Origin: Candidatus Omnitrophota bacterium
GTDB taxonomy: Bacteria; Omnitrophota; Gorgyraeia; Gygaellales; Profunditerraquicolaceae
Direction of reading: 5' to 3'
Assembly: GCA_041651035.1 (NCBI GenBank)
Contig: JBAZKC010000001.1
Coordinates: 131,244 to 195,243, forward strand
Length of the DNA: 64,000 bases
A program made the position numbers and the translations under genes. The notes beneath the pieces were generated by a model, which searched no databases, was not told the DNA's origin, and was given only the letters and a program-made list of their open reading frames with translations. Positions 747 to 50,251 of this stretch are shown here, piece by piece (within the stretch, counting starts at the first letter, position 1; every line of letters starts with the position of its first letter).

Positions 747-756
747 TGCTATAAAT

Positions 757-4010: not shown

Positions 4011-4024
4011 TTTTCCTCCTGCTT

Positions 4025-6070: not shown

Positions 6071-6098
6071 CTACATACTATCTACTACATACTATCTA
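6071..6098. repeat. Perfect 14-nt tandem direct repeat (ctacatactatcta, two copies) inside the long 5' leader between the riboswitch and the receptor gene
   Basis: Read directly from the sequence. Confidence 0.6.
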
Positions 6099-8551: not shown

Positions 8552-8582
8552 TGACTTGCCTTATTATCATATAAAAACTTAT

Positions 8583-9716: not shown

Positions 9717-10603
9717 AGTATCACCCCGGCAATTAAAATCAAGCTGGCAAAAGACTGCGCCGCTATGGCTAACTTAGATGACTCAATTAAACGCGCCTTA
9801 TCAAACGGATATTCCTTTAAGATAACCGCTGCTTTATGCGCGGGAATAATACACACAAAAGAAAACAGCGCCCATACGCCCAGGAACCCTAAAATGACAT
9901 TTAATAAGATAGACAAAAATGCCAGGCCTATCAATAAATAATAAAATAAGAACGCGCGAGACGGCCCGGAAATACTTACCCAGGTAAATTTACCCGCCTT
10001 CTGATCATCTAAGAAATCAGGGACCTCGTTAGCAAAAAGAACGGCGGTAGTCAAGAACCCGAAAGGCAAAGCGAGCATAAAACTTTTAAGGTCGGGAAAG
10101 ATCCCGGTTTGAATAAAATACCCTCCCATTACCAGCGCCGGGCCAAAAAGTATAAAGATAAATAACTCACCCCATCCATGATAAGAAAACTGCAGCGGTT
10201 TTTCCGAATACGACCAGCTTAAAGTAATTATCGCCGCGTAAACCCAGACGGCTAAAAAGTTACGCAAGGCCAAAGAAAGCAAAATAACGCAAATACCGGC
10301 GATAAGCGCCAAGGCTAATGCGGCTAAAAGATAGAATTTATCCGTCAGGATGTTTTCCTGGATCAGTTTTGAGCCGCCGAAGAATTTATAAAAATTCCTA
10401 TCCTGCCAATCCGCGCCGCTCTTTGAATCCGCGTAATCATTGATCAGGTTAGCGCTTAGATGCGTAGCTAGCACCGCTAAAAAGCCGTAAATAAAAGCGA
10501 AAACATTAAAACTGCTTCTTACAATTAAAGACCCGAATACAAAGGGAATAATACTGGCGGAAAGAAAAGGCAGCCTTAGCGCACGGATAATATTCCTGAC
10601 CAT
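9713..10603 (-). CDS. UbiA-family polyprenyltransferase (MenA/UbiA-like)
   Basis: 296 aa polytopic membrane protein with the NDYADSKSGAD (NxxxDxxxD) motif. Overlaps the upstream oxidoreductase by 4 nt. Confidence 0.75.
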   Translation of the reverse strand: MVRNIIRALRLPFLSASIIPFVFGSLIVRSSFNVFAFIYGFLAVLATHLSANLINDYADSKSGADWQDRNFYKFFGGSKLIQENILTDKFYLLAALALALIAGICVILLSLALRNFLAVWVYAAIITLSWSYSEKPLQFSYHGWGELFIFILFGPALVMGGYFIQTGIFPDLKSFMLALPFGFLTTAVLFANEVPDFLDDQKAGKFTWVSISGPSRAFLFYYLLIGLAFLSILLNVILGFLGVWALFSFVCIIPAHKAAVILKEYPFDKARLIESSKLAIAAQSFASLILIAGVIL

Positions 10604-10646: not shown

Positions 10647-11690
10647 ATGATTTCAAGAATAAAGAACAGAATTGAGCGGGAGCTTGCCTGTTATATCCGC
10701 GACGTAGACAAAACATATTCTTTAAGCAATATCTCGCCTGTCTTATACGATAGTATCAAGAATTTCCTCTCCCGCAAAGGCAAAAGAGTCAGGCCCACCT
10801 TATTTGTCGCAGGCTACCTTGGTTTTACCAGGAAACCGGCTAGAGGATTATACAGGAGCGCGATATCCCTAGAACTCCTGCATGACTTCTTGCTTGTCCA
10901 TGATGACATAATAGATAGATCCGCCACCAGAAGAGGCCAGCCTTCCATGCATGAAATGCTGAATAAATACCTGGTAAAATATAAGAATATAAAATTTACG
11001 GGCGAGGACCTGACTATCGTTATCGGAGATGTAATGTATGCCCTGGCCCTGGAAGCATTTTTGTCGATAAAAGAACCCTGGCTGCGAAAAGAAGCATCCT
11101 TAAGAAAACTTATTCAGGCGGCCCTTTATACCGGCAGCGGGGAATTCGTCGAACTTTTATACGGGGCGAGAAATATAGATACGGTCACCAAGGCTGATAT
11201 CTATAAAATATACGACTTGAAAACCGCCAATTATACCTTTGCCTCTCCTTTATCCATGGGCGCGCTGCTGGCAGGAGCAGAAAAGAAACAAATAGATATA
11301 CTTTTTAATTTAGGGATATATTTGGGCCGGGCCTTTCAGATAAAAGATGATTGTTTAGGCCTGTTCGGCAAAGAGCGCAATACCGGAAAATCCGGCCTCA
11401 CAGACCTTAAGGAAGCCAAAAAAACAATTCTTATCTGGTATGCTTATAATAAATCATCGGAAAAAGACAAGCTGACTATTAAGAGGATATTCGCCAAAAA
11501 TAAAATTGATAAAAACGATTTATTAATTACGCAAAGGATCGTTTCTGCCTCAGGGGCGCTGGAATATGCCGAAAGGGAAATTAACGCTTTGACAAAGAAA
11601 GCAGATTATCTGGCTGCCCGCTCTAAAATGCGCCTGCCTTATAAATCCGCTATTATTGATTATTCCAAAGAGATGCTTGAACTAAGATAA
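10647..11690 (+). CDS. trans-Polyprenyl diphosphate synthase (IspB/GGPPS family)
   Basis: 347 aa. First DDxxD motif LVHDDIIDRS and second FQIKDDCLGLFG. Confidence 0.8.
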   Translation: MISRIKNRIERELACYIRDVDKTYSLSNISPVLYDSIKNFLSRKGKRVRPTLFVAGYLGFTRKPARGLYRSAISLELLHDFLLVHDDIIDRSATRRGQPSMHEMLNKYLVKYKNIKFTGEDLTIVIGDVMYALALEAFLSIKEPWLRKEASLRKLIQAALYTGSGEFVELLYGARNIDTVTKADIYKIYDLKTANYTFASPLSMGALLAGAEKKQIDILFNLGIYLGRAFQIKDDCLGLFGKERNTGKSGLTDLKEAKKTILIWYAYNKSSEKDKLTIKRIFAKNKIDKNDLLITQRIVSASGALEYAEREINALTKKADYLAARSKMRLPYKSAIIDYSKEMLELR

Positions 11691-35818: not shown

Positions 35819-37561
35819 TTATGCTTTAACGGGTATTGTAAATATAAACTTAGAACCCTTGCCGAATTCACTCTCTACCCGGATCTTCCCTCCGTGCAGC
35901 TCAACTAGTTTCTTGGTTAAGGCAAGGCCTAAACCTGTGCCTTCAACAGTCTTAGTATAGATGGATTCGATCTGGCTAAAGGTTTGAAAGAGTTTTGAAA
36001 GGTCTTCGGGCTTTATCCCAATACCACTGTCTTTTACGGAGATCTCTACAAAATCCCCTGTTTCCGGCCCGCCTGCTTCCAGCGCAACCAAAGCGACGCC
36101 TTTGGTTAGTTTCGCGTTTACTTTAACTTCGCCTCCGTCCGGAGTAAACTTCACGGCGTTGCTTAAAAGATTAAACATTATCTGCTTAAGCTTCTTTGGA
36201 TCCGCTGCTATGTTAATATCTGCCTGAGGTTCAACATCTAAAGACAAATTTATCCTGTGCTTAAGAGATTTCTCCTGAAGCAGGGTAAGCGACGGCTCAA
36301 GGATATCTTTTTTTAAAGACAGGTTCTCCGGCTCAAGCTCCATTTTCCCGGCTTCTACTTTGGAAAGATCCAATATATCATTGATCAGTCCTAAAAGATG
36401 CCTGCCGCTGCTATGAATGTTATCCGCGTATTTCTTCTGCTTTTCATTTAACTGGCCAAAAAATTGATCCTGCAGGACCTCGGCAAAACCAATTATGGCA
36501 TTAAGCGGCGTCCTTAATTCATGGGACATGTTAGCCAGGAAATCAGATTTCGCGCGATTAGCGGCATCTGCCTGAAGCTTTGCTTTCTCAAGTTCATGCT
36601 TCTGTTCAAAAAACCGGCTGATTACGCGGATGATATCTCCGAATTCGGTTTTATCTTTTTCCAAGGTAGCCGCGCATTCAGTATTCTCGTTTTTTAAAGC
36701 GCCGGATATTAACTGAAGCGGGGTCTTGACCCACCTGGTCAGTAAAATTATGAAAATAATTAGAAATATCCCCATAAACCCTGTCATTATAAAGAAAAAG
36801 GTTTTATAACCGAGGTTAAAATCCTTAATGAGCCGGGACTCCTTCCAGCCGGTTACTTTAAACGCCGGCTTTGCGTCCGGGCCCATAAGAACCTGGCTGA
36901 ATGTGATTGTTCCTTTTTCCGGATTTGAAACAATGGGGGCTTCTCTCTTTTCTGAAAACGCGCTTACGGCTATATTGCATCCGCATAACTTGGCGATTTC
37001 ATCGATATAACTCTTATCCCAGAGGCGTCCGGCCAGAAGATAGCCTCGGCCGGGAGTCTTTCTCTCCATATCGTTGCTGGGGTAAATGCCGGCGCCGCGG
37101 ATCTCAAGAATACCTTTTGGGGTATTGATATAAAAATGACAGAATGGCCCGTTAGCAAAAAGGCTGCTTATTTTAAGCTTAGGTAAAGGCAGCTCTTTAA
37201 AGCCGGGGACTTCAAGATCATTTACGGAGTAGATAAAGGAACTGTCCAGGCCGTATATCCATATCGCATTCGCGTGGTATGCGGGTAAAGCGGTATCGAT
37301 ATTTTCCGCGGCCCATTTTTTATCTCCGCTGGAAGCGAAATTAGCCATCTCATCCCAATGAGTATAATCGTAGGCTAAGGCATCCAGCGTGCTCCCTTTG
37401 AGTTCAATTATTTTTTCAAAAACCAGATGGATCTGCTTTTCTTCATTAGAGAATAATGTGATCAGCCTTTGCTTCTCAAACGCCCTCTGTAAAAGGACGG
37501 AAGAAACAAACACTACAACGATCGAAAAGAGTAAAAATATTATTTTTGTTTGTACTCTCAT
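35819..37561 (-). CDS. Sensor histidine kinase with periplasmic sensor domain, HisKA and HATPase_c
   Basis: 580 aa. Has an N-terminal TM helix, a second TM helix, the H-box [15 protein letters not shown], and N/G1/G2 boxes. Confidence 0.9.
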
Positions 37562-37591
37562 ATTTTCTGCGCTATCTCATCCATTGCCGCG

Positions 37592-37969
37592 CTATTTGGC
37601 GCCGCCATAGAGGACTTCTTTTATTCTTTGCATAAGCTCTGCCCGGCTGGACGATTTGGAGATAATAAGCCTGCCGGAGACTTTTCCGTGCTGCGCCTTA
37701 ACCTCTTCTTCAGTGATTATACTGGTGAGGTATATTACCGGTATATCTTTGGTCTTATTATTTTCTAATAACTCCTCGGACACCCTGCCGCCGTCTTTCT
37801 TTGGCATCATCACATCAAGAAGTATCAAATCAGGGATATTTTCAATGGCAAGTTTTAAACCATCATCACCGTTAGCGGCGGTCAATACCTCAAATCCCTG
37901 GCTCAATAAAATATCCTTATACAGCTCAAGTTCTTTTTCATTATCATCCACGATCAAGATCTTAGACAT
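37592..37969 (-). CDS. Stand-alone CheY-like response-regulator receiver domain. The start codon I chose lies inside the longer ORF on the supplied track.
   Basis: MSKILIVDD... with GGAGG 7 nt upstream. Confidence 0.85.
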   Translation of the reverse strand: MSKILIVDDNEKELELYKDILLSQGFEVLTAANGDDGLKLAIENIPDLILLDVMMPKKDGGRVSEELLENNKTKDIPVIYLTSIITEEEVKAQHGKVSGRLIISKSSSRAELMQRIKEVLYGGAK

Positions 37970-38043
37970 AGCAATCCTCCTTGCCCACAAGGGCACACCC
38001 GGCAATCCGATAAGCCGGGGTGTAACCACAAGGCCACACCGAC

Positions 38044-38104
38044 GCCCCCCGCCCCCTGCTTAGTACTATATTTTCAGAAAAACTGCCGCAATTTTTAGGG
38101 GGCG
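38044..38104. repeat. Structured intergenic repeat, copy A (divergent). A C-rich arm, a 45-nt AT-rich core and a complementary G-rich arm.
   Basis: ccgccccc...tttcagaaaaactgccgcaattttta...gggggcgg. The arms are reverse complements. It is homologous to copies at 39599-39654 and 41390-41454. Confidence 0.6.
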
Positions 38105-38108
38105 GAAA

Positions 38109-38777
38109 TTAATCTAGCAGTTTCTGAGACAAACGATGCAACTCTGGATTGGCTAAAGCCAAAACCTTCTTTTTTACCGCTCTTGAAAAATATTCTTTCT
38201 CGGTTTTGGTCAATTTTTCCCGCTTAAGCTTCTTTAGAAATAGTTCTTTTTGTTTAGGAGAAAAAACCTGCGATAATGAATATTCAAGGCTCAATTCGTC
38301 TTTTACCGAAAGTAATTCATTTAATTTATTCCGGGCCTGGTTAAAGTAATTATTGAATACAGTCTTCAATCTCTGAGCAGACAATTCGCTTCCGGCAACG
38401 TTAAGCTCTCCATTAGATTTAAGCTTCTCGAGGAATACCATCACTTTTCTTCTTCTCGCTACGGAAAGGGAATAATATAATTTATCGGCCCAAGAAAACT
38501 TTAGATTAAAGAATTTATAAAGTGCTAATGATATTTCCATAAGTGAAAATAAATACGGTTTATCGAAGGGCTTTTTTAAGTACCAATTAACTTTGTCATA
38601 GCTAAATAATCCCTTCTCTGCGCTGTTTGCTAATACTACCGGAAACCCTTCCCAAAGGCGAAGATCACGAGATCTCACCATGTCCGCCAAAGTTAAATTA
38701 GCATCCTTATCTTCTTCGACGCCAAAAAGCGGAAAACCTAACGCATTAACTCTTTTGAGAAGATCGTCATTTTTCAT
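38109..38777 (-). CDS. Hypothetical protein, partner of the upstream nucleotidyltransferase (possible toxin-antitoxin or defense pair)
   Basis: 222 aa. Its start overlaps the NTase stop by 11 nt. Confidence 0.4.
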   Translation of the reverse strand: MKNDDLLKRVNALGFPLFGVEEDKDANLTLADMVRSRDLRLWEGFPVVLANSAEKGLFSYDKVNWYLKKPFDKPYLFSLMEISLALYKFFNLKFSWADKLYYSLSVARRRKVMVFLEKLKSNGELNVAGSELSAQRLKTVFNNYFNQARNKLNELLSVKDELSLEYSLSQVFSPKQKELFLKKLKREKLTKTEKEYFSRAVKKKVLALANPELHRLSQKLLD

Positions 38778-39357
38778 TGATCAGGCCTTCTTTCTTTAGA
38801 ATCTTTAAGAAATGCTCAAAATTCTTATTCACTTTGTCTTCTGAAACATCAAAAGATGCTGTTTCTTTAAAACGCTTCTCTAACTGCTTAAAATCTATGT
38901 CTTTATTTTTATCCCTTACTAAAACAAGGCAATCATCTATATCTATCGCTGTAGCTCTGAATAGCTTACTTATAACAATGTCATAATAATTTAAAACTCC
39001 CAAATAAATTCTATCAAACTCTTTTACAAAAATATGATTTCCTTTTCCCAGTGGCGACTCTAACAATTCTGTAGTATGTACTGCTTTACCTCTGAATAAA
39101 TCGAATATGAAGCCATCTCCCCTCTCCCACCCCCAGCCGCTTGCCGATTTATATCCAAGCTGTTTTAAAGTACTTACTAAATATTCATATTCATCTAAAT
39201 TTGGCACTATTAAGTCTATATCCTTAGTAGATGGTTTCACGCCTAAAAGCGTCAAAGCGGTTCCGCCACAGGCAATCAAATGCACCTTCCTCTTGAGAAA
39301 GGTATCCCAAGCCCTGATTCTATCCAATAGGCCTTGTTTATCTATTCTATATTCCAT
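38767..39357 (-). CDS. Pol-beta-superfamily nucleotidyltransferase-like protein
   Basis: 196 aa with ACGGTALTLLGVKPSTKDIDLIV (the hG[GS]x9-13DxD NTase motif). Confidence 0.6.
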   Translation of the reverse strand: MEYRIDKQGLLDRIRAWDTFLKRKVHLIACGGTALTLLGVKPSTKDIDLIVPNLDEYEYLVSTLKQLGYKSASGWGWERGDGFIFDLFRGKAVHTTELLESPLGKGNHIFVKEFDRIYLGVLNYYDIVISKLFRATAIDIDDCLVLVRDKNKDIDFKQLEKRFKETASFDVSEDKVNKNFEHFLKILKKEGLINEK

Positions 39358-39435
39358 ACAATAACTTGTATATATTCATACAACTCTCTGTATTAAAGCA
39401 TACAATATATTTAGTATTTTGTCAAGACAATCTTC

Positions 39436-39465
39436 GACAACCTAAATGACAACCTAAATGACAAC
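39436..39465. repeat. Tandem 12-nt repeat (gacaacctaaat, about 2.5 copies)
   Basis: Read directly from the sequence. Confidence 0.6.
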
Positions 39466-39521
39466 TAATTTTGGCAAGAAACACTTGGTGGAACCGCGTC
39501 TCTAAGGAAACAGCTTAAATG

Positions 39522-39654
39522 CACCGCGCCCTGGGGGGCGCTCCCACATCTCGCGTCCAGCGCTTCAAAAACTGCTTGGGCGGGGCGCGGCCCCCACCCC
39601 GCGCCCCGCCTAGCGCTATCTTTTCAAAAAACTGGCGAAATTTTTAGGGGGAGG
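39522..39654. repeat. Structured intergenic repeat, copies B1 and B2 in tandem. B2 contains a perfect 12-bp inverted repeat GGCGGGGCGCGG/CCGCGCCCCGCC.
   Basis: B1 is ccgcgccc...agcgcttcaaaaactgcttg...gggcgcgg. B2 is ccccgcgccccgcc-tagcgctatcttttcaaaaaactggcgaaattttta-gggggaggg. Confidence 0.65.
39599..39654. repeat. Structured repeat unit B2. This is an explicit coordinate for the unit already contained in the 39522-39654 feature.
   Basis: See the 39522-39654 feature. Confidence 0.6.
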
Positions 39655-39697
39655 GAAAAAAATAGAAACTTCCTTAAATAGTTAAGAATTTTTTAGA

Positions 39698-41191
39698 TTA
39701 ACTTGAATTACTAATGGCTTTATTCAGGTCATCGATGAAAAGCTGGGCTTCTTGGGCATTCCCTCTTTTCCATCTATTAAGTAATTTCGAGCATCCACTT
39801 CCAAAGTTATCTTTTTTATCCTGAAACCATCTTTTGTGCCCACCACTTTCTGTCACATTAACAAAACCGTTAAAACAAGTATCCTTATAGAATGCCATCT
39901 CTCCTCCCCAAAAGGAATCATCTTCAGGCAATGTTGCTAAAAAGGTATAAAAAATGCTTTCAGGACACTTATCCTCTGGCAGAAACACTACATTTTTTAA
40001 CCTTGCAAACCGAGCATTTGTCCTAGAATCTCCATCCAAAACAAATATAAATCTTTTCAGACATGATAATCTTTTTGATGCCAAGTCAGCTAAAGCCCCA
40101 TTAGAAAGAGTAGCTCCATAAACATCAATAATGCTCTTTAACGATGTAGCATTTAGCAAGCTTCTACACCATAATGCTCCAACTGGGTCTTCACATAAAA
40201 GATTGATTTTCTCAACTGAATGTTTTTCCTTAGTTTCAATCATTATTCTACTCTTTATATAATGGAATTCTGGGTTAAGCTTATTGACAACTTTTCTATT
40301 TCTTATTTCAAGGAAATTTACTTTTACTCCTTCATAATTCTTGTTTAATAGGAAATTTATAATTTCCAATGAATGCGTAGTAAAAACTATTTGGAGACTG
40401 TAAGTTCTCGCGTATTTGTATAATCTTTTTATAAGATTTATTTGAGAACCCGCAAACATAGTGGTATCCAACTCATCGATTAACAAAATTCCCCGATTCG
40501 GTTCTAGTTTCTTGAAAGACATAATCGCAGTTAAGATTTGCCCTAAATTATCTTGCCCAGCTGAGTTACCTAGAGTGCCATAGCTATCAGTTTCTGTTGC
40601 AAAGAAATCTTTATTGGGCGTCTTAGCATGCTGTGGAGAAACATTTTTTTCCAAAGAAACAAAAATTTCGCTTGATTCGTTCTTATAAAAATGGATGTCT
40701 TGGGTACCTAATCCAGACTCTTCAATTAAAATATCTCCTTCTTTTTCTTGGGCTAGAGGAAACAATCGTCTTAAGCCAAGATAAATTACGGGATAATCAA
40801 TTTTTCCTTCTCCCTCTTTTGCACGGATACCAACATCAATCCTAAACCTTTTTTCCGATTTTACATACCTTGACTTGGCTTGTTTATTAAGGACCTCTCC
40901 TTCATCATCTAATTCGGCTTCATATTCATAGTTCTTATCAAATTCATGAGTTGGGCAGAATTTAAATATTTCTGAATACTCAGCTTCATATGGTTTATTA
41001 TCCAAAGTTTTGTGTTTATATTTAACTTCTGATCCTTTTTCTCTAAAACTAAACAAGTGGCCAACTAAACCAAGAATGCTTGACTTACCTGTGCCATTTA
41101 AACCAGATATTACTGTTAAATAGTCACCAAATTCTATACTAACATTCTCCATATGTCTAAAATATTTAACATTTAGCTTTACTATTCTCAT
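39698..41191 (-). CDS. OLD-family ATP-dependent endonuclease (ABC-type ATPase plus C-terminal TOPRIM), GajA-like
   Basis: 497 aa. Has Walker A GLNGTGKSS, Walker B ILLIDELD, H-loop FTTHS, and TOPRIM Glu (LLCEDPVG) and DxD (FVLDGDS). Confidence 0.75.
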   Translation of the reverse strand: MRIVKLNVKYFRHMENVSIEFGDYLTVISGLNGTGKSSILGLVGHLFSFREKGSEVKYKHKTLDNKPYEAEYSEIFKFCPTHEFDKNYEYEAELDDEGEVLNKQAKSRYVKSEKRFRIDVGIRAKEGEGKIDYPVIYLGLRRLFPLAQEKEGDILIEESGLGTQDIHFYKNESSEIFVSLEKNVSPQHAKTPNKDFFATETDSYGTLGNSAGQDNLGQILTAIMSFKKLEPNRGILLIDELDTTMFAGSQINLIKRLYKYARTYSLQIVFTTHSLEIINFLLNKNYEGVKVNFLEIRNRKVVNKLNPEFHYIKSRIMIETKEKHSVEKINLLCEDPVGALWCRSLLNATSLKSIIDVYGATLSNGALADLASKRLSCLKRFIFVLDGDSRTNARFARLKNVVFLPEDKCPESIFYTFLATLPEDDSFWGGEMAFYKDTCFNGFVNVTESGGHKRWFQDKKDNFGSGCSKLLNRWKRGNAQEAQLFIDDLNKAISNSS

Positions 41192-41337
41192 TCCCTCGGC
41201 CCCCTATGAGATGTAAGTTGGTTTTCGATAAGCTTGCGATACTTACAAGTTGTATCTTCTAATAATTATTCTTTCATACTTATGCTAATTCTTTTACGTC
41301 ACTGCTTTTATCACAATAAAAACAAGCGTAAATATTG

Positions 41338-41354
41338 GGACGTTTCTATTTTTC
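41338..41354. repeat. 17-bp direct repeat GGGACGTTTCTATTTTT, left copy. The right copy is at 48013-48029.
   Basis: Exact 17-mer present twice, bracketing the four-gene cassette at 41500-47856. Confidence 0.6.
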
Positions 41355-41389
41355 AAGATTAGAAGAAACCTTTACTTATTTATCCGTAG

Positions 41390-41454
41390 CCCCCTCCCCG
41401 CGCCCCGCCTTGCGCTATCTTTTCAAAAAGCTGGCGAAATTTTTAGGGGAGGGG
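41390..41454. repeat. Structured intergenic repeat, copy C, with arms cccctcccc/ggggagggg
   Basis: ccccctccccgcgccccgcc-ttgcgctatcttttcaaaaagctggcgaaattttta-ggggagggg. The arm sequence differs from copy B but stays complementary, which is covariation. Confidence 0.65.
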
Positions 41455-41499
41455 AATAAATCTAACCCTTTACTCAGAATTAATACGGCACGCCCAATT

Positions 41500-44289
41500 T
41501 CAACCTGTGCTATGCTTGCTACCGTAAGAACATAAACGATACTGAAAACAATCCTTACAAACTTCTCTGTTTTTTGTTCTTATAAATGATTGTTTTCTAA
41601 TAGTATCAGCACTTTCTTTTATCTTTTTCTCCATCATTTCAAGATGGCTTTCGCTTAATGGTATTGGGGGTTTCTGAGTATTAGTTTCTAAATCATATAT
41701 CTGGATGTAATCGGCTTCTTGTCCTGTAAGCTCCTTATGACCCATGGCATATAAATTAAGTTGATCGATGGTAATTTGCCTCTTCTGCACATCATCACTT
41801 GACTTAAATTCTATAATAGTAGTTTCATATTTACCTTCGTAATTCTTCTTTTTTATCAAATCGATTCTCCCGCTGACAAAAATACCATCATCAAGATGCA
41901 GTTGAATATCTTGTTCTACAAATTCAACTTCTTTTAACGATTTTTTATTATTATCAAAATATTGAACCACCTTATTCTCAACTAATTCTTTCATTTCAAG
42001 CAATATTGAGGACTTGCCTAAATAAGGAAAATAGGATTGTTGCTTTGCAATATCCCTTACAAGTGGTAAGCTAAGAACCTCGCCTAACATGCTTCTTTTA
42101 TGAATTTCCATTAGACTATTATGTAATGATTTTCCGAATCCCATTCGTTGGTCCAAAGGATAACAAAAACCATACATGGAAACGAGTTTGAAACGGTATG
42201 GACATTCAAAGAAATCTTTCAAAATACTAAAGTTTAGAGATATAGTGACTATGCTCTGTTTGGGTTTTGGTTCAAGTTTAGTTTTTGTTTTAAAATCTGG
42301 GATATTTGTAACAATTACATTTGAAGCTGAAATCTCAGAAACAAATATAGAAGGTTTTCTATATAGCTGATTATTTTGATCAGGCGCTCTTGAAATAAAC
42401 AAATATTTTTGAGCTCTTGTGATTGCTACATAGAATAATCTACGCTCATCTTCAATATTTCCTTCATATCGATCCTGGTTTTTAATTAACGTTCTATCTA
42501 AGAAATGCCATTCACTCAATCCACCATGTTTTTTTGTTGGGAGATAATTTTTATTTAGTCCTGGTATAAATACAACAGGAAATTCAAGCCCCTTTGCTTG
42601 ATGAATAGTCATTATTTGAACTGCTCGTGGAGTCTTATATGGATTATTTAACCATCCTTCTGGGTAATAGTCGTTTGCTGCATATGTTATGAAATCTAAA
42701 AAATATTTTAAGTGGATTTCTGGTAGAGAGCTATTGAAATTTATCGATTCAAAATCATTTATTACTTGGCTAAATTTGCCAAGGTTAAACATTATTATTT
42801 CTCCTCTAAGAGGATCCTCAAATGTTTCTTCATTTATTTTGGCAATTTCAATAAAACTCCAGTAAACATCTTGCAAACTATATGCCCAAATCGGTTTTCT
42901 TTTTTTATCTATGTGATTCTCGGGGAATTTTCTTGTTAAATTTTTTATAGCGATATTAAGATTTTCAAATTTAATTTTATTTTTAGGTATATCTTGCCAA
43001 AGCTTGATTAGTTCTTCTTTTTTTATAGAATGATTTAAATACTGAAAAATGCCCACTGCTGCTTTTGCTTCGTTAACTTCAAATAATTCGTTAACACCTG
43101 CTGTAATATAAGGAATATTATATTTATCAAGAATTTCAACAATCCTATAGGATTTATTCCATGTTCGCAGAAGGATAGCAAAATCGGAGTAATCAAGCCC
43201 ACGCTTCTCTTCTCCTTCTTCTTTAAATGATACTCCGAGCAATTTCTTTATCATATCCGCAATAAAATTATTTTCTTCTTCAATATTTACAAACTCATTG
43301 TATAGTATGTCTTCTTTTTTAATGAAATTTTGCTTTTCGGCCGAGATCATTTTCTTGGGGATTCGATTATTTTTAAAGATAAGAGTTTCTGCAAGACTTG
43401 TAATTCCCTTGGAACTTCTAAAATTTTCATTTAAAATCACTTCTTTGGCAGGTCTATAGTTTTTTAGAAAATCTTTTATATATCGATTATTACTACCTCT
43501 CCACTGATAAATATTTTGATCGTCATCACCTACAACGGTAACGATTGGTTTGCTTGTTAGGTAAAGTTGCTTTATTAATTCTTCTTGGATTGGATTAACA
43601 TCTTGATATTCATCTACGATCAGGTACTTTAAGTCTTGCTTTATCTTGTTATACAACCCCTTTTTCTCATGTAAACTATTTAAGGCTTCTGTCATTATCA
43701 TAGTGAAATCAAAATAGCAGTTATCTCTTAAAACTTTTTCATATTTCTCTTTTGCTTTTGAAATATTTTCAGGTAATTTACGATTACAATCTGACTCTCT
43801 GATAATATTCATTATTTGAATGAATCTTCCTGTATCAACAAACTTTCTCATGCTGAAGTTTCTATCATTTATTTTAGTAATGTCGGTCATACCGATGTGA
43901 TAATAATTTTTATCTACGAATAGACGCAATTTTATCTCATCTAAAACAGAGAAATTTTGGAATTTGTACTCATTGTTTTGCAAGGCGTTAAGACACCAAC
44001 CGTGAATTGTGCCAATATACATGTCTGCAATACCTCTTAACTCATTCAGATCAGGATTTTCTTTAAGAAAATTCAAGATTTTATTTTTTAATTCTGCCGC
44101 TGCTCTATCAGTATATGTAAACGCAATGATGTTTTTCGGTTCTATTTTTAAGCCATTCTTGGGATTTAATAAAAATGTCACCTTTCCAGCAATAGTACTT
44201 GTCTTTCCCGAACCTGCGCAGGCGATTATTCTTAAATTTTGCTCATTGGCTTTTATAGCCGTTTTTTGTTCATCTGTAAAAGGTATCAT
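41500..44289 (-). CDS. UvrD/PcrA-like SF1 helicase fused to a C-terminal Cas4/AddB-type PD-(D/E)xK nuclease domain with a Cys4 cluster
   Basis: 929 aa. Has motif I IIACAGSGKTSTI and motif Ia AFTYTDRAAAEL. The C-terminus carries CPYRFKL...CKDCFQYRLC and IIEFKSSDD (ExK). Its start overlaps the upstream MTase by 4 nt. Confidence 0.75.
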   Translation of the reverse strand: MIPFTDEQKTAIKANEQNLRIIACAGSGKTSTIAGKVTFLLNPKNGLKIEPKNIIAFTYTDRAAAELKNKILNFLKENPDLNELRGIADMYIGTIHGWCLNALQNNEYKFQNFSVLDEIKLRLFVDKNYYHIGMTDITKINDRNFSMRKFVDTGRFIQIMNIIRESDCNRKLPENISKAKEKYEKVLRDNCYFDFTMIMTEALNSLHEKKGLYNKIKQDLKYLIVDEYQDVNPIQEELIKQLYLTSKPIVTVVGDDDQNIYQWRGSNNRYIKDFLKNYRPAKEVILNENFRSSKGITSLAETLIFKNNRIPKKMISAEKQNFIKKEDILYNEFVNIEEENNFIADMIKKLLGVSFKEEGEEKRGLDYSDFAILLRTWNKSYRIVEILDKYNIPYITAGVNELFEVNEAKAAVGIFQYLNHSIKKEELIKLWQDIPKNKIKFENLNIAIKNLTRKFPENHIDKKRKPIWAYSLQDVYWSFIEIAKINEETFEDPLRGEIIMFNLGKFSQVINDFESINFNSSLPEIHLKYFLDFITYAANDYYPEGWLNNPYKTPRAVQIMTIHQAKGLEFPVVFIPGLNKNYLPTKKHGGLSEWHFLDRTLIKNQDRYEGNIEDERRLFYVAITRAQKYLFISRAPDQNNQLYRKPSIFVSEISASNVIVTNIPDFKTKTKLEPKPKQSIVTISLNFSILKDFFECPYRFKLVSMYGFCYPLDQRMGFGKSLHNSLMEIHKRSMLGEVLSLPLVRDIAKQQSYFPYLGKSSILLEMKELVENKVVQYFDNNKKSLKEVEFVEQDIQLHLDDGIFVSGRIDLIKKKNYEGKYETTIIEFKSSDDVQKRQITIDQLNLYAMGHKELTGQEADYIQIYDLETNTQKPPIPLSESHLEMMEKKIKESADTIRKQSFIRTKNREVCKDCFQYRLCSYGSKHSTG

Positions 44290-45542
44290 GGATTAATTTT
44301 TTGCATTACAACTATATATTCGATATTCATCAAATTTCTTTTTTCCCCTGACACCCCTGAAGGGCTATTCTTTCTTGGTAACCTTTTGTTTGATATTTTT
44401 CTCTCAAATGTTTCAATATGTTTAAATCCATTATCTTTAAAGAATTCTCTTGTGATTTGATGTGTTTGTAACGTAACTCCTTTGACGCATCTATTGCTTA
44501 CAACATAGCAAGCATAACCTTTTTTCCTTATAATCTTTGAAACATTCGCAATTGACTTTTCATAATCTTCGTAAAATGCTGACACATCCAAAGCTCTATT
44601 TTTATCTATTTTCCCAATTTTTATTAAATCCTTATTTAAAATTTTGCATTTAAATTCTTTTATCTTTTTAGCTCTTTTGCCTCCCATTAATTCATAATCA
44701 AGCTTATTTGCATCTTGAAATCCTAACCATTGATTAGCTAATCTAGAGAATTGTCCATACGCAACAGTTGTTTGCGAATCTCCATATGGAGGAGATGTAA
44801 TCACAATCCCTACCTTCTGCTTTATGATTTGATTAGGATCTTGTTTTACTGTGTTAAAATCATGTATTTTACTTGTCGCGCCATTCTTTTTTTCATCACA
44901 AAATTTTAAAAGTCCTTCCCTGTTTTTGGCTACTATTTTTTCAAAGGTTGTAAAGACGTCTGGCTTAAAATGTCTAAGTTGCTTTGTATCCATTCTGTAT
45001 AGCTTGAACTCATTTTTCCTTGTACGTGAGCATTCTCTTATTGTTTGACTAAATGCGACTTTAAAAAAATTACTTACCGACGCATACGGAATTTTATCAA
45101 TATATTCTTTCAGAATCGATAGGTCGACAATCACGGACTTTGAAAACCAAAAAGTAATATTAGGGAATTTAGCGGGTACCACAAAATTACGTTTTTTAAA
45201 ACCAAAACGAAATGGGAAAAGATAAGAGTAAAATTCTTTTATATGTGAATTTAAAGTTTTAGTTTTGATCGAGTTAGTTTTTGCCGTTGCAATCAACCTT
45301 GCAAGTGGATTTATATCAGTACCTAATGCGTTAAGACCATTAATATTTGCCTCAACTAGAGATGTTCCCGTACCACAATAAGGGTCGAAAAGAGTAGATT
45401 TATTAATACCGTATTTCTTTATTAGTTGATCTGCAACATGAGGAACCATCATTGCTGGATAAGTATGGAAACAGTGAGTAGAATATTTAGTATCAACTTC
45501 GATAAAATCCCAATCATATTTTTTTACCATGTGCTTATCCAA
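44286..45542 (-). CDS. DNA methyltransferase, N4-cytosine or N6-adenine
   Basis: 418 aa with motif I FDPYCGTGTS and motif IV ITSPPYG. Confidence 0.75.
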   Translation of the reverse strand: MDKHMVKKYDWDFIEVDTKYSTHCFHTYPAMMVPHVADQLIKKYGINKSTLFDPYCGTGTSLVEANINGLNALGTDINPLARLIATAKTNSIKTKTLNSHIKEFYSYLFPFRFGFKKRNFVVPAKFPNITFWFSKSVIVDLSILKEYIDKIPYASVSNFFKVAFSQTIRECSRTRKNEFKLYRMDTKQLRHFKPDVFTTFEKIVAKNREGLLKFCDEKKNGATSKIHDFNTVKQDPNQIIKQKVGIVITSPPYGDSQTTVAYGQFSRLANQWLGFQDANKLDYELMGGKRAKKIKEFKCKILNKDLIKIGKIDKNRALDVSAFYEDYEKSIANVSKIIRKKGYACYVVSNRCVKGVTLQTHQITREFFKDNGFKHIETFERKISNKRLPRKNSPSGVSGEKRNLMNIEYIVVMQKINP

Positions 45543-45719
45543 ACAGCTTAAACATCATTGATTCAATCGGCCTAGAATTAAAATCCTTAAGATTATGAGG
45601 ACATTCCCAAAAGAGACACCCCTTATAAAAAATTGAATCACAATCTATTTATCTGTAACTAATTATAAACGCCTAGCCTGTCACCCCGGGGAACGTCACC
45701 GAAACCATTCTTGATTAGT

Positions 45720-46811
45720 TTATTTTCCAGATTTGGTTCGGTTATCTTGTTTGCACAACATTTGGCAATTCTTTGCAACAGTCTTTCCACCTTCATGCCA
45801 GGGTTTTATATGATCAGCTTCCATTTCTTCTATCTCAAAGTGTTTCTTGCATTTTACGCATTTACCTTTTTGCCTTTCGTATGCTTCTCTTTTTTGTTTA
45901 TCTGTAAATGCTCTAATATTCAAGAATTTCTCATTTCGGGTTAAAACATACGGATAAATTCCGGTTTTGCTTGTTACTTCATCATCCAGCATTAACTCTT
46001 TGATTTCAGTTTCCAATTTATTAGAATTCAGTCTCTTCTCTTTGAACTCGCTATACAGCTCTCCCCATTGCACACTACTCATTTCTCGGCGATAATTTGT
46101 AAAAGTCTTTCGCACCCATTCAATCACATCTTGAAAGTACTGCCACAATTCTTCAGCATTTTTGTTATGCTGATGCTTGGCCATATAATCTTCTATTTTG
46201 CCTTTGTTAATCCACGAAAGCACAGTTTCTAAATACTCCTGTCGAATTGGTGAACCACTAACTAATTGTCCGCCGTCGTTTGCTAACAAATACGCCGCAC
46301 AATTTGATTTACTGAATTTTAATTTCGCGTCGCTCAACCACGGCCCGGTATAAACTGCGTTACGGATTTCCTGGTCGTTAACCTTCTCTCCGTAAGTGTT
46401 AATAATCCTAAACCAGTCTAGCCGTTCCTTATCCGCACCTTCGCAGAAATAAATCATTAGTTCATAATCCAAAATTTTATCTTGTTCCTCTTTGGTTAGA
46501 TTATGAAAAAAGCGGTCGTTCAGCGAAAAATCGCCATAAACATATTGCCCTATACTAATAGTGCGCTGCTGGCCGTCCAGCATTTCGTAGCCACCATCTT
46601 CTCTGATCATCCAATACATCACATTCAGCGGAAAGCTGTTTTTGATAGTTTCGATTACGGCATTACGTTGCTTTTCCTTGTACACAAATTCACGCTGATA
46701 TTTTGGACGAATATCAAGTTTACCATCATAAGCCACCACGCCTTCTTCGGCGCTATCTTTGTAGCCCGCCATCACTCTACGAATTTTAATTTTGTGTAGT
46801 TCAATTTTCAT
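45720..46811 (-). CDS. DUF262 (ParB/GmrS-like NTPase) fused to an HNH endonuclease, a GmrSD-like restriction protein
   Basis: 363 aa with the DGQQRT motif. The C-terminal HNH is EADHIKPWHEGGKTVAKNCQMLCKQDN. Confidence 0.75.
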   Translation of the reverse strand: MKIELHKIKIRRVMAGYKDSAEEGVVAYDGKLDIRPKYQREFVYKEKQRNAVIETIKNSFPLNVMYWMIREDGGYEMLDGQQRTISIGQYVYGDFSLNDRFFHNLTKEEQDKILDYELMIYFCEGADKERLDWFRIINTYGEKVNDQEIRNAVYTGPWLSDAKLKFSKSNCAAYLLANDGGQLVSGSPIRQEYLETVLSWINKGKIEDYMAKHQHNKNAEELWQYFQDVIEWVRKTFTNYRREMSSVQWGELYSEFKEKRLNSNKLETEIKELMLDDEVTSKTGIYPYVLTRNEKFLNIRAFTDKQKREAYERQKGKCVKCKKHFEIEEMEADHIKPWHEGGKTVAKNCQMLCKQDNRTKSGK

Positions 46812-46812
46812 A

Positions 46813-47856
46813 TTATTTTTTCACCTTCTTGTTTTTTATAATAACTCGAGCGTAAGGAACATCGACAATTCCATTTGTAATCATATATAAATCGCCATCA
46901 ACTGCACCTCTTTTTTGAACTTCTTTTCTGTATTTTTTATGTTCCTCCTTATACGGTTTAACTCCAATCTCCATCCCTGAATTAGATATACCTAAACCAA
47001 TAACCTCAAATTGGTTCGGATTATATTTATCAAGGAAAGTAACTGGTACACCAATCGCACCATCATAGTCGCAAGGTATGTCGGTATATTTGTCTACGTT
47101 AATTGCATCATAATTGTAGTACTTTGGATATTCTTTACGTGAATATTTTTTATAAAGAGTGATATCTTGTTTATGCTTCTCAACTACAAGATTTGTAAAC
47201 CAACACGAAGTTGACACACGCACAATTTTCTTGCCATTTTCATCAATATGATGAAAATGCTCCCAATCGTCTGGTACAATAAAAAACATCCCTACATTAA
47301 AATTCGTGTAGCCAGTACGCAGTTTGTTGTCCTTAATTAACTTAAAAATCTCTTTATAGGTTAGTGAATTTGTATTGCCTATAATCAAAAACCCTTTTTT
47401 GTACTTCACGAGCTGTGCAACATATTCACGAAACAGCGAAAATGGTGGATTAGTCACAACAATATCCGCTTCTTTAAGTAGTTCAATACACTCCACACTA
47501 CGAAAATCGCCCGTTCCTATCATCTCAGTTATAAACTCACTTGGATCAGGCGTGCGATTACCATTTTTATCGCCTGTGTATTCTAATTTATAAGGTGGTT
47601 CTTGGGAAAATAAATTTGCTTCTTTATAATGTGTGGCTATCAATTTTTTTAGCCCCAAATGTTCAAAATTCATACTAAAATATTTGACGAAATTACTTTC
47701 TCTGGGATCATCGCAGTTGCAAAAAACTACTTTGCCGCGGAATTGCTCTTTATAATATTTCAGTTCATTTTCAATATCGCCAAGCTGAGTATAAAACTCG
47801 TCTTTCTTTTCTTGGCTTGCTTTGTGTAAGTTTTTATTTAAGAATTTTGTTTCCAT
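46813..47856 (-). CDS. N6-adenine DNA methyltransferase (NPPF class)
   Basis: 347 aa with motif IV VVTNPPF. Ends 2 nt before the DUF262-HNH start. Confidence 0.7.
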   Translation of the reverse strand: METKFLNKNLHKASQEKKDEFYTQLGDIENELKYYKEQFRGKVVFCNCDDPRESNFVKYFSMNFEHLGLKKLIATHYKEANLFSQEPPYKLEYTGDKNGNRTPDPSEFITEMIGTGDFRSVECIELLKEADIVVTNPPFSLFREYVAQLVKYKKGFLIIGNTNSLTYKEIFKLIKDNKLRTGYTNFNVGMFFIVPDDWEHFHHIDENGKKIVRVSTSCWFTNLVVEKHKQDITLYKKYSRKEYPKYYNYDAINVDKYTDIPCDYDGAIGVPVTFLDKYNPNQFEVIGLGISNSGMEIGVKPYKEEHKKYRKEVQKRGAVDGDLYMITNGIVDVPYARVIIKNKKVKK

Positions 47857-48012
47857 ATTTTATTTGGATTCAACAGGCCTATTTTAAAATGCAACTTTTT
47901 AGGATTTATTCCTAATGGCCTAATGTTATATCCTTCCCACTAATTCATCTAAACTAATCCCCAAAACATCTGCCAATTTCTACTGAGACCAACCAGATCT
48001 CAAAATAAATAA

Positions 48013-48057
48013 GGGACGTTTCTATTTTTGGCGGTTAATGAAAAATAGCAACGTCCC
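48013..48057. repeat. 17-bp stem hairpin gggacgtttctattttt-ggcggttaatg-aaaaatagcaacgtccc. The left arm is the right copy of the 17-bp direct repeat.
   Basis: Read directly from the sequence, with one mismatch in the stem. Confidence 0.55.
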
Positions 48058-48081
48058 CTCCTTTTCTGATTGTACTAATTA

Positions 48082-48175
48082 ATTACTCCTTGCGTAAACG
48101 CTTGTAATCTTCTTGCTCCGCGTTCAAAGCGCCAGTTGGATTTCTTTACTATTACTCCTTGCGTAAACGCTTGTA
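48082..48175. repeat. Two perfect 25-nt direct repeats (attactccttgcgtaaacgcttgta) spaced 69 nt apart, next to the tRNA-His 3' end
   Basis: Copies at 48082-48106 and 48151-48175. Confidence 0.6.
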
Positions 48176-48252
48176 GATTTCATCCGCTTCGCTACTGAAA
48201 TCTACTGCGCACGCTTCGGAGTGAAATTTTTTGTAAAGCAAAAAATTTCAAG

Positions 48253-48329
48253 GGTGGCTGACGGGGCTCGAACCCGCGACCTCTAGAGCCACAGTCTAGT
48301 GCTCTAACCAGTTGAGCTACAGCCACCAG
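48253..48329 (-). tRNA. tRNA-His (anticodon GUG)
   Basis: The minus strand reads gGUGGCUGUAGCUCAACUGGUUAGAGCACUAGACUGUGGCUCUAGAGGUCGCGGGUUCGAGCCCCGUCAGCCACC. The extra 5' G pairs with the discriminator C. Has GTG in the anticodon loop and T-loop GGUUCGAGUCC. CCA is not encoded. Confidence 0.9.
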
Positions 48330-48349
48330 ATCCTACTATTTTATTCCAA

Positions 48350-49546
48350 TTACTTCCTAAATGAATCCTCTGCCGCGTCCTTAAGTGCCTTGCCTATAGC
48401 GAATGTCCCGTCAATTACAGCCCTGGAGATATCAGTCGCGCCTTTTACAGTGCTTTCAAGAATCTTAAGAGGCAATACTAAAACATCCTCTGTTTTAAGG
48501 CTGTTGGAGTCCCGTACTTTGGCAATTTTATCCGCAAAAGCCGTTTGTATATTGCTGATGCCGAGTTCAGGCCTGTCCATTCTTGTCTTTATAGCAAAAT
48601 CCAATACTACCTTTCCCTGATCCAAGGCCTTGAAAGTATCCAGGACCACACTGGTAACTTTCTCCTCTTTTCCCTCGGATACTTCTGCCGGACGAGGCTT
48701 GCGGACGATATCGGTCAATTCTAAATGGCATTCAGCAGTTACGCTGTTATTTAAACCCTGGATGTTGCTGGTAAAACTAAGGCTTGCTTTCTCGATGCGG
48801 GCTTTCTCTAGATCCACCCAACTTGAATAATAAGGAGAGAGATAAATCCCGTCTATATCTTCGATCTTGATCGCCGCCTGTATATCTTTCTTGTAGTAAT
48901 TAAGCCATCCCTCCACGCTTATTTTGCCTTCTTCTTCGCCTTCCTGCCAGGGGATCCTGCCTTTCAATTCAAAATTCGTGATCGCCGGAAAAGGGAACGT
49001 GTAGAGTTTGGTCAACTTGAAATTTATGTCTTTGATCGTTATCTTGATGCCATCCGCCTTCACCGTATAGTCAATAAAATCTATGTTGCCGTCTTTGACG
49101 GTAACATGCTTAAGGACCAGGCGTAAAGGGCGCTTCTTTTTAGGCTCAACCTTTGCCTTAATCTCAGGGACAGCGGCTGCCTTAACAGGCGCTTCCGCGG
49201 TGGATGATACTACTGCCTGAGGAGGAGGAACTCTATTATAAGTGATTTTGGGGTTTATAACGCTGATATCGTTAAAAGCGATATTGCCCATCAGAAAATA
49301 AGGTATGCTGGGCGTAATAGATATTTCGTCTACTTTTGCCAGTCCTTCGACGTTTAAATCTTTTATATCCAGAGTAAAAGGCAGCATGAGTTTAAACTGG
49401 CCCGCGCTTACTTTCTTATGGGTTAAACCCTCAAGCTGCTTGATGATAATAGATTTACCCTTAAATGCCACGAATACATAAGCCGAGATAAAAAGGACTA
49501 TATAAGCTATGGTTACTGTCAACAGTATTTTTATCCGTAGTTTCAT
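48350..49546 (-). CDS. Membrane-anchored hypothetical protein (DUF748/AsmA-like)
   Basis: 398 aa with a single N-terminal TM helix. Confidence 0.4.
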   Translation of the reverse strand: MKLRIKILLTVTIAYIVLFISAYVFVAFKGKSIIIKQLEGLTHKKVSAGQFKLMLPFTLDIKDLNVEGLAKVDEISITPSIPYFLMGNIAFNDISVINPKITYNRVPPPQAVVSSTAEAPVKAAAVPEIKAKVEPKKKRPLRLVLKHVTVKDGNIDFIDYTVKADGIKITIKDINFKLTKLYTFPFPAITNFELKGRIPWQEGEEEGKISVEGWLNYYKKDIQAAIKIEDIDGIYLSPYYSSWVDLEKARIEKASLSFTSNIQGLNNSVTAECHLELTDIVRKPRPAEVSEGKEEKVTSVVLDTFKALDQGKVVLDFAIKTRMDRPELGISNIQTAFADKIAKVRDSNSLKTEDVLVLPLKILESTVKGATDISRAVIDGTFAIGKALKDAAEDSFRK

Positions 49547-49598: not shown

Positions 49599-50251
49599 CA
49601 TACCGCACCGAATTTCTTCGGCCAAAATGTTGCGGTCTGGACTATGTCTTCACCATTTCAGGTGTGTGGCGTATAGTCTCTGAGGACTCTCGTTATATAT
49701 CGCGATAATCATCTGCCCATTTAACATACTTAGTCTGATTATTGCCTGGCTTATTGAAACGTATAGCCTTAGGACAATCAGTAGAATTCGGGACGTACAA
49801 AACTGTTTCCTTATTCGGACAATAGATTGCATAATAATCAAAGTCTCGTTCTTTATAGGCATGTATATGTGTACCGTGTTTATCTGCCCAACTCGTCCTA
49901 AACTTAACTTCGATTATTCCATTACTAAGTAACGTGGTGTATTTCACTTGTAATTTAACCGCTTTGCCGTCCTTCAAAATAGCTACAATGTCATAAGGCT
50001 GGTGTTCCGACAGCGGGATGCATGGAACATATCCCCTCTGAACTAAGTCAGCGATAACCTTTGCTACCCCGATATCAGCCTTGACTTTCGTATGATGCAA
50101 CATTCACCTCCTTTCCATATTATTTTGGGCGTTAAGACTACCTGCGTTAAAACGGTTGCCTGCAAGTTATCCGTGCTTACGCATGAGGATTTTCTTGCAT
50201 ATAGCCACATCCTCTCTATGCGTTTTAGTTTCCGCATAGAGGCTCCTACTG
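49599..50251 (-). mobile_element. Group I intron inserted after tRNA position 34
   Basis: R-like element CAGAGACUAUA (49672-49682) and S-like element AAGACAUAGUCC (49639-49650) can form P7. Terminal G. Contains an ORF in the same orientation. Confidence 0.75.
49693..50103 (-). CDS. Intron-encoded PD-(D/E)xK-like nuclease (Hjc/I-Ssp6803I-like), putative homing endonuclease
   Basis: 136 aa with ...SEHQPYDIVAILKDGKAVKLQVKY... (E...D...(E/Q)xK pattern). GGAGG lies upstream of the ATG. Confidence 0.55.
   Translation of the reverse strand: MLHHTKVKADIGVAKVIADLVQRGYVPCIPLSEHQPYDIVAILKDGKAVKLQVKYTTLLSNGIIEVKFRTSWADKHGTHIHAYKERDFDYYAIYCPNKETVLYVPNSTDCPKAIRFNKPGNNQTKYVKWADDYRDI

Follow-up and report, generated by a model that had tools for sequence, protein, structure and literature searches.

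OLD nucleases are classified mainly by gene context: Class 1 genes stand alone, Class 2 comprises GajA with a downstream helicase gene, and Class 3 is associated with retrons (PMC10568477, PMC7049728). Class 2 proteins carry a helical insert in their Toprim domain (PMC10568477). HEC-04, a protein of about 495 amino acids (aa), acts as a single-gene defence of the ABC ATPase-TOPRIM type; it has been validated experimentally, depends on its Walker A lysine and on an E/DxD site, and was discovered within Hma helicase/methylase/ATPase systems (Payne et al. 2024, bioRxiv 10.1101/2024.01.29.577857). Fusions of UvrD to Cas4 form a monophyletic family in the pfam12705 branch and, in the contexts given in those parts of the survey that treat the fusion, occur with Mod/Res or Dcm methyltransferases (Hudaiberdiev et al. 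2017, PMC5704561). We analysed a stretch of 64,000 nucleotides (nt) from a Candidatus Omnitrophota contig (JBAZKC010000001.1; the window), in which a gene for an OLD-type protein lies next to a gene for a UvrD-Cas4 helicase-nuclease.

GajB, the Gabija helicase, has about 500 to 650 aa and no nuclease domain, and it forms a 4:4 complex with GajA. As in Gabija, genes for an OLD-type ATPase-Toprim protein and for a UvrD-type helicase lie side by side and in the same orientation at the locus in the window. The locus differs in that the gene order is reversed, the helicase has 929 aa, bears a Cas4-like nuclease and is coupled to a methyltransferase, the pairing is not conserved among homologues, the predicted Toprim domain lacks the Class 2 insert, and neither protein shows a specific affinity to GajA or GajB. 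A preliminary description of this DNA had left the choice between a rearranged Gabija variant and two independent systems, a stand-alone OLD nuclease and a methyltransferase-linked helicase-nuclease. The contexts of both families and the mobile cassette described below argue for the second. We consider that the locus holds two independent anti-phage modules, neighbours in a low-G+C defence island beside tRNA-His, and that it is not Gabija (probability about 0.85). Judged from its sequence, module A would be a two-gene operon resembling restriction-modification (R-M) systems, its gene pair conserved and its catalytic motifs intact; module B appears to be a self-contained single-gene OLD-type protein with intact ATPase and Toprim motifs on a mobile cassette. 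Both modules belong to known, though little-studied, kinds. The adjacency of the OLD-type gene to an upstream UvrD helicase-nuclease gene, reported in the preliminary description, agrees with the open reading frames, domains, predicted fold, and invariant residues; it is real here, yet conserved in neither family.

The helicase-nuclease is coupled to a methyltransferase

The domain borders of the helicase-nuclease are given in Table 1. Pfam returned UvrD-helicase (3.5e-51), UvrD_C (7e-40), PDDEXK_1 (1.3e-14), and Cas_Cas4 (6.6e-5), and the nuclease domain searched alone matched Cas4 profiles at 4e-9. Walker A, the DEYQD motif, D810, E827, K829, and the cysteines C696, C911, C914, and C920 are invariant in 27 helicase homologues. 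One N-terminal and three C-terminal cysteines are the known arrangement of iron-sulfur (Fe-S) clusters in Cas4 and AddB, and the Fe-S PD-(D/E)xK domain of Cas4/AddB type that had been read from the letters is borne out by these matches and residues. Equally well founded was the coupling of the helicase gene to a methyltransferase gene, as the methyltransferase stop codon and the helicase start codon overlap in ATGA. The methyltransferase has the motif order of the alpha type, with motif I (DPYCGTGTS) followed by motif IV (SPPY), and its true start is likely the ATG at 45530.

The link between the two genes is conserved. We examined eight distinct contexts at 54 to 85% helicase identity (the window and the loci L031, L032/33, L034/35, L036, L038, L116, and L117), and in all eight a homologous methyltransferase gene (412 to 440 aa) lies immediately upstream, with an overlap or a gap of at most about 30 nt. 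What follows the helicase gene is variable: a coupled gene for a protein of 254 to 262 aa in five of the eight, one for a 381-aa protein in L031, and the OLD-type gene in the window. A convergent Septu PtuA/PtuB pair lies downstream of the helicase in Dyadobacter; the ABC ATPase found in L032 is the PtuA of a Septu system, accompanied by PtuB, and no ATPase-Toprim protein.

More distant contexts were covered by 80 metagenome helicase homologues at 26 to 55% identity. A Type III Mod-like methyltransferase lies beside the helicase in 19 of them, usually followed by a gene for 750 to 1,220 aa (with ResIII in two of three tested), and a Dcm methyltransferase in another context type (9/80). These homologues reproduce the Mod/Res and Dcm contexts described for UvrD-Cas4, and the window protein agrees with the account of that family in its SF1 (superfamily 1) UvrD core with a C-terminal Cas4-like nuclease, four Fe-S cysteines, methyltransferase neighbours, and defence contexts (PMC5704561, sections on the fusion). 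What differs is the partner, here an alpha-type N6/N4 methyltransferase of about 415 aa without Res, and the coupled 254-262-aa gene of five of the eight contexts, a setting that those sections do not mention. By its sequence and domain plan, the helicase can thus be placed in the UvrD-Cas4 family, with methyltransferases as conserved partners, and the window adds a third methyltransferase type (N6/N4 alpha, without Res) to the known contexts. A link to three methyltransferase families that are unrelated to one another is what marks a modification-dependent nuclease system, and not GajB.

These findings bear on a rearranged Gabija, in which the OLD-type protein would serve as GajA and the UvrD-Cas4 protein as a nuclease-bearing GajB, the two forming one complex despite the reversed order. 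Both protein types are indeed present, co-oriented and 308 bp apart, and PADLOC GajB profiles match the helicase at 3.8e-58. An unrelated 1,297-aa helicase of locus L001, however, draws the same GajB matches, and their strength is explained by recognition of the generic UvrD core. In a comparison with the Protein Data Bank (PDB), the helicase core reached PcrA at 2e-46, UvrD at 4e-38, and AddA at 3e-22, versus 1.4e-5 for the solved GajB. Moreover, a hidden Markov model (HMM) of the OLD-type family detected an ATPase-Toprim gene in only one of 85 helicase contexts. This is L104, where a 589-aa, HEC-04-like protein (132 bits to the HEC-04 profile) is encoded after Dcm; the same island carries PDC-S02.

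The same comparisons speak to whether the UvrD-Cas4 protein could be an AddA/RecB-like helicase-nuclease of recombination repair, its methyltransferase being an orphan or regulatory enzyme. Its domain plan is AddA/RecB-like, AddA is among its PDB matches, the NCBIfam addA, recB, and RecB-like models match it in part, and a possible ancillary role, partly redundant with RecB, has been proposed for UvrD-Cas4 in the survey sections cited (PMC5704561). The scores, however, lie far under the family cut-offs (addA, 135 bits versus 708; recB, 128 versus 696), and the island holds no AddB or RecC/RecD partner gene. The helicase gene further lies in a stretch of 30 to 34% G+C versus about 44% for the window, sits among defence genes, and is in every case linked to a methyltransferase, which across the wider family comes from three unrelated families. 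We find a housekeeping role hardly credible, and the special kinship to GajB or AddA that had been considered for this helicase did not hold up.

Two further observations concern this gene and its relatives. The conserved 254-262-aa protein, whose gene often overlaps that of UvrD-Cas4, is encoded at L034 10802-11590, L036 6675-7460, L038 6852-7640, L116 8865-9653, and L117 8826-9590; it has no family match, the C-terminus of the L034 copy is hydrophobic, and no homologue of this third gene (262 aa) was found in the window. Inside the helicase coding sequence, a sub-threshold Rfam match on the minus strand (42375-42477) was obtained to RF03531, 'C. difficile sRNA included into helicase gene' (39 bits versus a gathering score of 65, E 0.0013); conservation of the helicase coding sequence is its most likely cause.

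The OLD-type gene is a single-gene unit on a mobile cassette

We examined 48 contexts of OLD-type homologues, taken from 12 species genomes, 4 exact-protein look-ups, and 32 viral or prophage contigs. With the helicase HMM and tblastn, a UvrD-like gene was found in a single context, L001, where it lies 3.4 kb upstream of an R-M/OLD-type operon and on the opposite strand. The closest relatives (60 to 66% identity) occupy unrelated neighbourhoods, namely a Dcm, restriction endonuclease (REase), and Vsr set, a nucleotidyltransferase pair among glycosyltransferase genes, and a ribosomal-protein operon; the 32 prophage loci are likewise unrelated in their neighbourhoods. The pairing on which a Gabija assignment would depend is therefore missing from all but one of the contexts examined in either family (47 of 48 for the OLD-type protein, 84 of 85 for the helicase).

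A blastn comparison of the window with contig ERZ27315056:k141_704854 (L118) gave further evidence against that assignment. The two share a single segment, 1,896 bp long and 97.9% identical, which is the cassette of Table 1 and corresponds to L118 9711-11604; protein P0001 of L118 is 99% identical to the OLD-type protein. In the window, the shared segment takes in the spacer from 41443 downwards, at the same identity. In L118, the cassette lies downstream of genes for Mod, Res, DruA, NurA, and a DUF87/HerA-like ATPase, and this helicase is absent. The OLD-type gene and its own upstream sequence of about 200 bp form a discrete mobile unit, and this unit has moved between islands. The L118 island itself (1-9680) has a Type III Mod/Res pair, the Res with a Peptidase_S24-like tail, besides the other three genes.

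The cassette is bounded by direct repeats of about 72 nt, each consisting of complementary G+C-rich arms (CCCCTCCCC...GGGGAGGGG) around an A+T-rich centre. Three co-oriented copies, and no fourth, are present in the window, each located at the 3' end of a gene or operon or shortly beyond it (Table 1), and an extra arm at copy A gives a palindrome with a 15-bp stem (39576-39613). In the spacer, the inverted repeat occupies 41391-41454. Since this structured repeat also bounds the segment shared with L118, where copies are found at 9711-9769 and 11486-11562, we regard it as the cassette boundary. The repeat core is absent from the viral contigs scanned and from the other 117 loci. Of the earlier statement that a 308-bp gap with a structured repeat separates the two genes, the length is exact and the local inverted repeat is present; the spacer as a whole does not give a more stable RNA fold than shuffled sequences do (z = -0.15), so that 'structured' holds for the local hairpin alone. 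A scan for promoters and terminators gave no more sites than in shuffled sequence and is uninformative.

Integron gene cassettes are characterised by attC sites with R''/R' core sequences and by an IntI tyrosine recombinase. The three co-oriented 3' repeats of the window have hairpin potential, no consistent GTTRRRY/RYYYAAC pair was seen by eye, and an integron gene-cassette reading is unsupported.

A 17-19-nt motif, GGGACGTT[TG]CTATTTTT, also recurs in this region. Its copies in the window are at 41337-41355 (+), 48013-48031 (+), and 48039-48057 (-), with a weaker one at 39659-39675, and those in L118 are at 9801-9817 (-) and 11479-11495 (+); about 0.01 matches are expected by chance. In the window, an inverted pair lies upstream of the EcoRI-family methyltransferase gene, one copy upstream of the OLD-type gene, and the weaker, inverted copy just past the OLD-type gene. 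The motif may act as a common operator or mark a recombination site.

The OLD-type protein appears to lie near HEC-04 and the retron I-B ATPase-Toprim

The OLD-type protein belongs to a family of more than 1,796 homologues, most of them with 480 to 510 aa. Its N-terminal ABC ATPase was recognised by Pfam (AAA_15, 2.4e-19; AAA_21, 3.2e-12), and 40 homologues share as invariant residues G30-S37 (Walker A), S210-Q213 (signature), D239-E240 (Walker B), and H273, together with the Toprim residues C333-E334-D335 and D386-x-D388. The C-terminal 195 aa searched alone gave no Pfam or PADLOC match, including Pfam Toprim and DUF4435, and support for assigning this region to the OLD Toprim is structural and motif based. 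In the predicted fold, E334, D386, and D388 lie at strand ends. For the AlphaFold model of the C-terminal region (predicted local distance difference test, or pLDDT, 90), Foldseek placed first the C-terminal regions of the Burkholderia pseudomallei OLD (BpOLD) and the Xanthomonas campestris OLD (XccOLD), both matched over the full length with probabilities of 0.98 and 0.91 and template-modelling scores of 0.41 to 0.47. AriB was a weak fold match (probability 0.35, rank 37). In PARIS, the AriA ABC ATPase and AriB, a DUF4435 Toprim protein, are separate or fused. For the full-length model (pLDDT 88), GajA (on top), the Thermus scotoductus OLD (TsOLD), and retron Eco8 led the Foldseek list at E of about 1e-12 with more than 500 aligned columns. 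Structure and motifs together fit an active OLD-type enzyme, as far as a predicted fold can indicate.

The leading position of GajA in this list, and the match of PADLOC GajA profiles to the ATPase (2e-12), might be taken to favour a rearranged Gabija. The profile matches are, however, limited to residues 1 to 78, the P-loop region, and the family sequence profile run against the PDB found TsOLD (7.6e-9, through the ATPase motifs only) and no GajA. Class 2 OLD proteins are about 50 aa longer than those of Class 1, and the window protein has 497 aa; its predicted Toprim region (residues about 325 to 420) is compact and seems to lack a large insert, unlike the Class 2 enzymes with their helical insert (PMC10568477). 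Taken with the unconserved pairing, the generic GajB matches, and the recurrence of the cassette without the helicase, these data make a Gabija complex very improbable, and we conclude that the OLD-type protein most probably does not form one with the helicase.

Among the PADLOC profiles, the best match was the retron ATPase-Toprim_I-B (2.2e-21, 75 bits), followed by a partial match to AriA (4.5e-21) and by HEC-04 (4e-14, 50 bits, covering residues 129-417 of 497); the 'Old' profile was not within the best 25 matches. By context, the OLD-type protein behaves as Class 1. By sequence, it seems to form a separate clade near HEC-04 and the retron I-B ATPase-Toprim, with no close relative in P2 Old or TsOLD. 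The alternative of a Class 1 OLD nuclease beside a helicase without GajB affinity, as it had been put before, accordingly stands for the helicase, which has no specific affinity to GajB, and for the single-gene context of the OLD gene, and holds less well for the sequence, which seems not to be close to the Class 1 enzymes. With these the protein shares the stand-alone ATPase and Toprim gene, TsOLD as a top fold match, and prophage-borne homologues. It differs in its 497 aa versus the 528-aa TsOLD chain, in an ATPase insert that is predicted to be mostly beta-strand, unlike the helical dimerisation domain, in its location in a defence island, and in that part of its family lies inside Type II R-M operons. 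HEC-04 is probably the best functional analogue, given its length of about 495 aa, an ABC ATPase fused to an OLD-like Toprim with E...DxD, and a place in or beside methylase-containing systems; as the match of the window protein to it is partial and only 50 bits, the latter is better regarded as coming from a related clade than as a member.

Two other affiliations were tried and rejected. A retron was not supported, as no reverse-transcriptase domain was found in the island proteins by Pfam and no retron RNA in an Rfam scan of 37500-48500. Weak HmaB, mad2, and mad3 matches, which would point to Hma or MADS systems, cover only S-adenosylmethionine (AdoMet) or P-loop motifs.

Ties of the OLD-type family to restriction-modification genes

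Several points weigh against two independent anti-phage modules. The defence function of both is one that we infer. The helicase-nuclease has no recognisable target-recognition domain by which it would tell unmethylated DNA apart. The 85 helicase and 48 OLD-type contexts are limited samples and were collected by pattern-based scans. No canonical terminator was found on the minus strand of the 308-bp spacer, so transcription of the helicase operon may run on into the OLD-type gene. Finally, 4 of the 12 genome loci show the OLD-type gene in translational coupling with R-M genes of the NgoPII type (RE_NgoPII and Dcm). These loci (L001 8110-11458, L005 8060-11476, L006 4830-7102, and L007 9153-12588) come from Melainabacteria, Peribacteria, Bacteroidales, and Chitinophagales, with the orders R-M-OLD, R-OLD-M, and R-OLD. 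Their OLD-type proteins are only 38 to 58% identical to one another, so the NgoPII link is old or recurrent.

The coupling in four distant lineages raises the possibility of a composite system, in which the OLD-type gene would be an accessory of the methyltransferase/helicase-nuclease pair, or of R-M modules generally, and act as a second-line guard if restriction is inhibited. PARIS and PrrC are such systems, which fire when a phage disables restriction. In L023, Dcm, REase, Vsr, and a 77-aa gene precede the OLD-type gene; HEC-04 itself came to light inside Hma systems; and the OLD-type gene of the window occupies the slot downstream of the helicase in which relatives carry the 254-262-aa gene, although the content of that slot varies. 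Against this, the queries used revealed no methyltransferase close to the OLD-type gene in any of the 32 prophage loci or in 8 of the 12 genome loci, and relatives at 59 to 64% identity (L027, L030) have no called R-M genes nearby. The cassette, which includes an upstream region of its own, moves by itself; a single gene suffices for HEC-04; and since R-M systems are the commonest defence genes, chance alone should bring some of them next to the OLD-type gene. We hold a composite system to be quite unlikely. The NgoPII loci, the window, and L023 suggest a tendency of part of the OLD-type family to settle within methylation-based systems, in line with the account of embedded defences by Payne et al. 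A real functional tie between the family and such systems is rather unlikely in our estimate, and it would not make the locus Gabija.

Proposed modes of action

In module A, the methyltransferase would mark host DNA, and the helicase-nuclease would load on unmarked foreign DNA, probably guided by the methyltransferase or in complex with it as in Type III enzymes; the lack of a recognisable target-recognition domain in the helicase makes such a complex plausible. The SF1 motor would then unwind the DNA, and the Fe-S PD-(D/E)xK nuclease would degrade it. Like a Type III R-M system, the module pairs a methyltransferase with an ATP-dependent PD-(D/E)xK helicase-nuclease in tight co-expression. It differs in that the motor is SF1 (UvrD) rather than SF2 Res, the nuclease is Cas4-like with an Fe-S cluster, and the methyltransferase is not Mod-like; Pfam found no ResIII domain in the island proteins, and the best methyltransferase profile is of Type II.

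For module B, analogy with HEC-04, P2 Old, and PARIS suggests that the ABC ATPase may sense an infection cue, possibly a phage factor acting against restriction or RecBCD, and would license the two-metal Toprim nuclease to cut nucleic acid, whereupon the infection would be aborted. A bolder proposal is that the whole OLD-type clade is a mobile, repeat-bounded 'guard' cassette that lodges in or beside restriction systems and fires when a phage disables restriction and, separately, that the ~72-nt repeats reflect an integron-like exchange of defence cassettes in Omnitrophota; we consider this unlikely, though conceivable.

The locus also removes a false lead, since an OLD gene beside a UvrD gene is not by itself Gabija. 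Any UvrD-like helicase will match the GajB profiles of PADLOC, and any ABC ATPase the N-terminal portion of its GajA profiles, so that gene context across homologues must be checked. Two leads are gained: a compact methyltransferase/UvrD-Cas4 pair, as a candidate for a new kind of ATP-dependent restriction enzyme, and direct sequence evidence of a single-gene OLD-type defence moving between islands as a discrete repeat-bounded cassette.

Composition of the defence island

The features are collected in Table 1. The island spans about 38.0 to 48.25 kb and has 30 to 38% G+C versus 42 to 48% on its flanks. All of its genes are on the minus strand, and one of its ends directly adjoins tRNA-His. The window shows no evident integrase, and the recombinase motif H-x-L-R-H-[ST], searched as a regular expression, had zero matches there, which is a weak test.

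Table 1. Features of the defence island and of its two modules, by position in the window
Feature	Position	Strand	Evidence or remark
tRNA-His	48252-48326		first in transcription order
EcoRI-family methyltransferase	46813-47856	-	PF13651, 3.6e-125
GmrSD_N/DUF262-HNH protein	45720-46811	-	full-length match to REase_II PDLC03418 (REBASE-type Type II endonuclease profile), 2.7e-129
DNA methyltransferase (module A)	44286-45542	-	Pfam N6_N4_Mtase, 1.8e-8; PADLOC MTase_II PDLC03322, 6e-116, full length
UvrD-Cas4 helicase-nuclease (module A), 929 aa	41500-44289	-	Pfam domains, invariant motifs
SF1 helicase core	~42325-44277		part of 41500-44289
Cas4-like Fe-S PD-(D/E)xK nuclease	~41530-42237		part of 41500-44289
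Spacer, helicase to OLD-type gene	41192-41499		308 bp; repeat copy B and the upstream region travelling with the OLD-type gene
Mobile cassette, ~1.9 kb	39549-41443	-	repeat, upstream region, OLD-type gene, repeat
Repeat copy B	41389-41460		starts 39 nt past helicase stop; left cassette boundary
OLD-type protein (module B), 497 aa, single gene	39698-41191	-	Pfam, invariant residues, predicted fold
ABC ATPase	~40292-41191		part of 39698-41191
Toprim and helical C-terminal domain (predicted)	~39701-40219		part of 39698-41191
Repeat copy A	39590-39661		starts 36 nt past OLD-type stop; right cassette boundary
DUF6036 nucleotidyltransferase	38767-39357	-	weak AbiEii match
222-aa gene	38109-38777	-	overlaps DUF6036 gene; no family match
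Repeat copy C	38040-38111		diverged, 65% identity; overlaps 3' end of 222-aa open reading frame, closes island

The EcoRI-family methyltransferase and the GmrSD_N/DUF262-HNH endonuclease form a separate Type II R-M pair (45720-47856), coupled with a 1-nt gap. At the other end, the DUF6036 and 222-aa genes (38109-39357) are probably a toxin-antitoxin-like pair and the last cassette of the island. The stretch from tRNA-His to the first island gene contains a perfect direct repeat of 25 nt, with copies at 48082-48106 and 48151-48175 that lie 69 nt apart. Just beyond the island, a stand-alone PDDEXK_5 endonuclease gene lies at 49693-50103 on the minus strand (7.8e-29).

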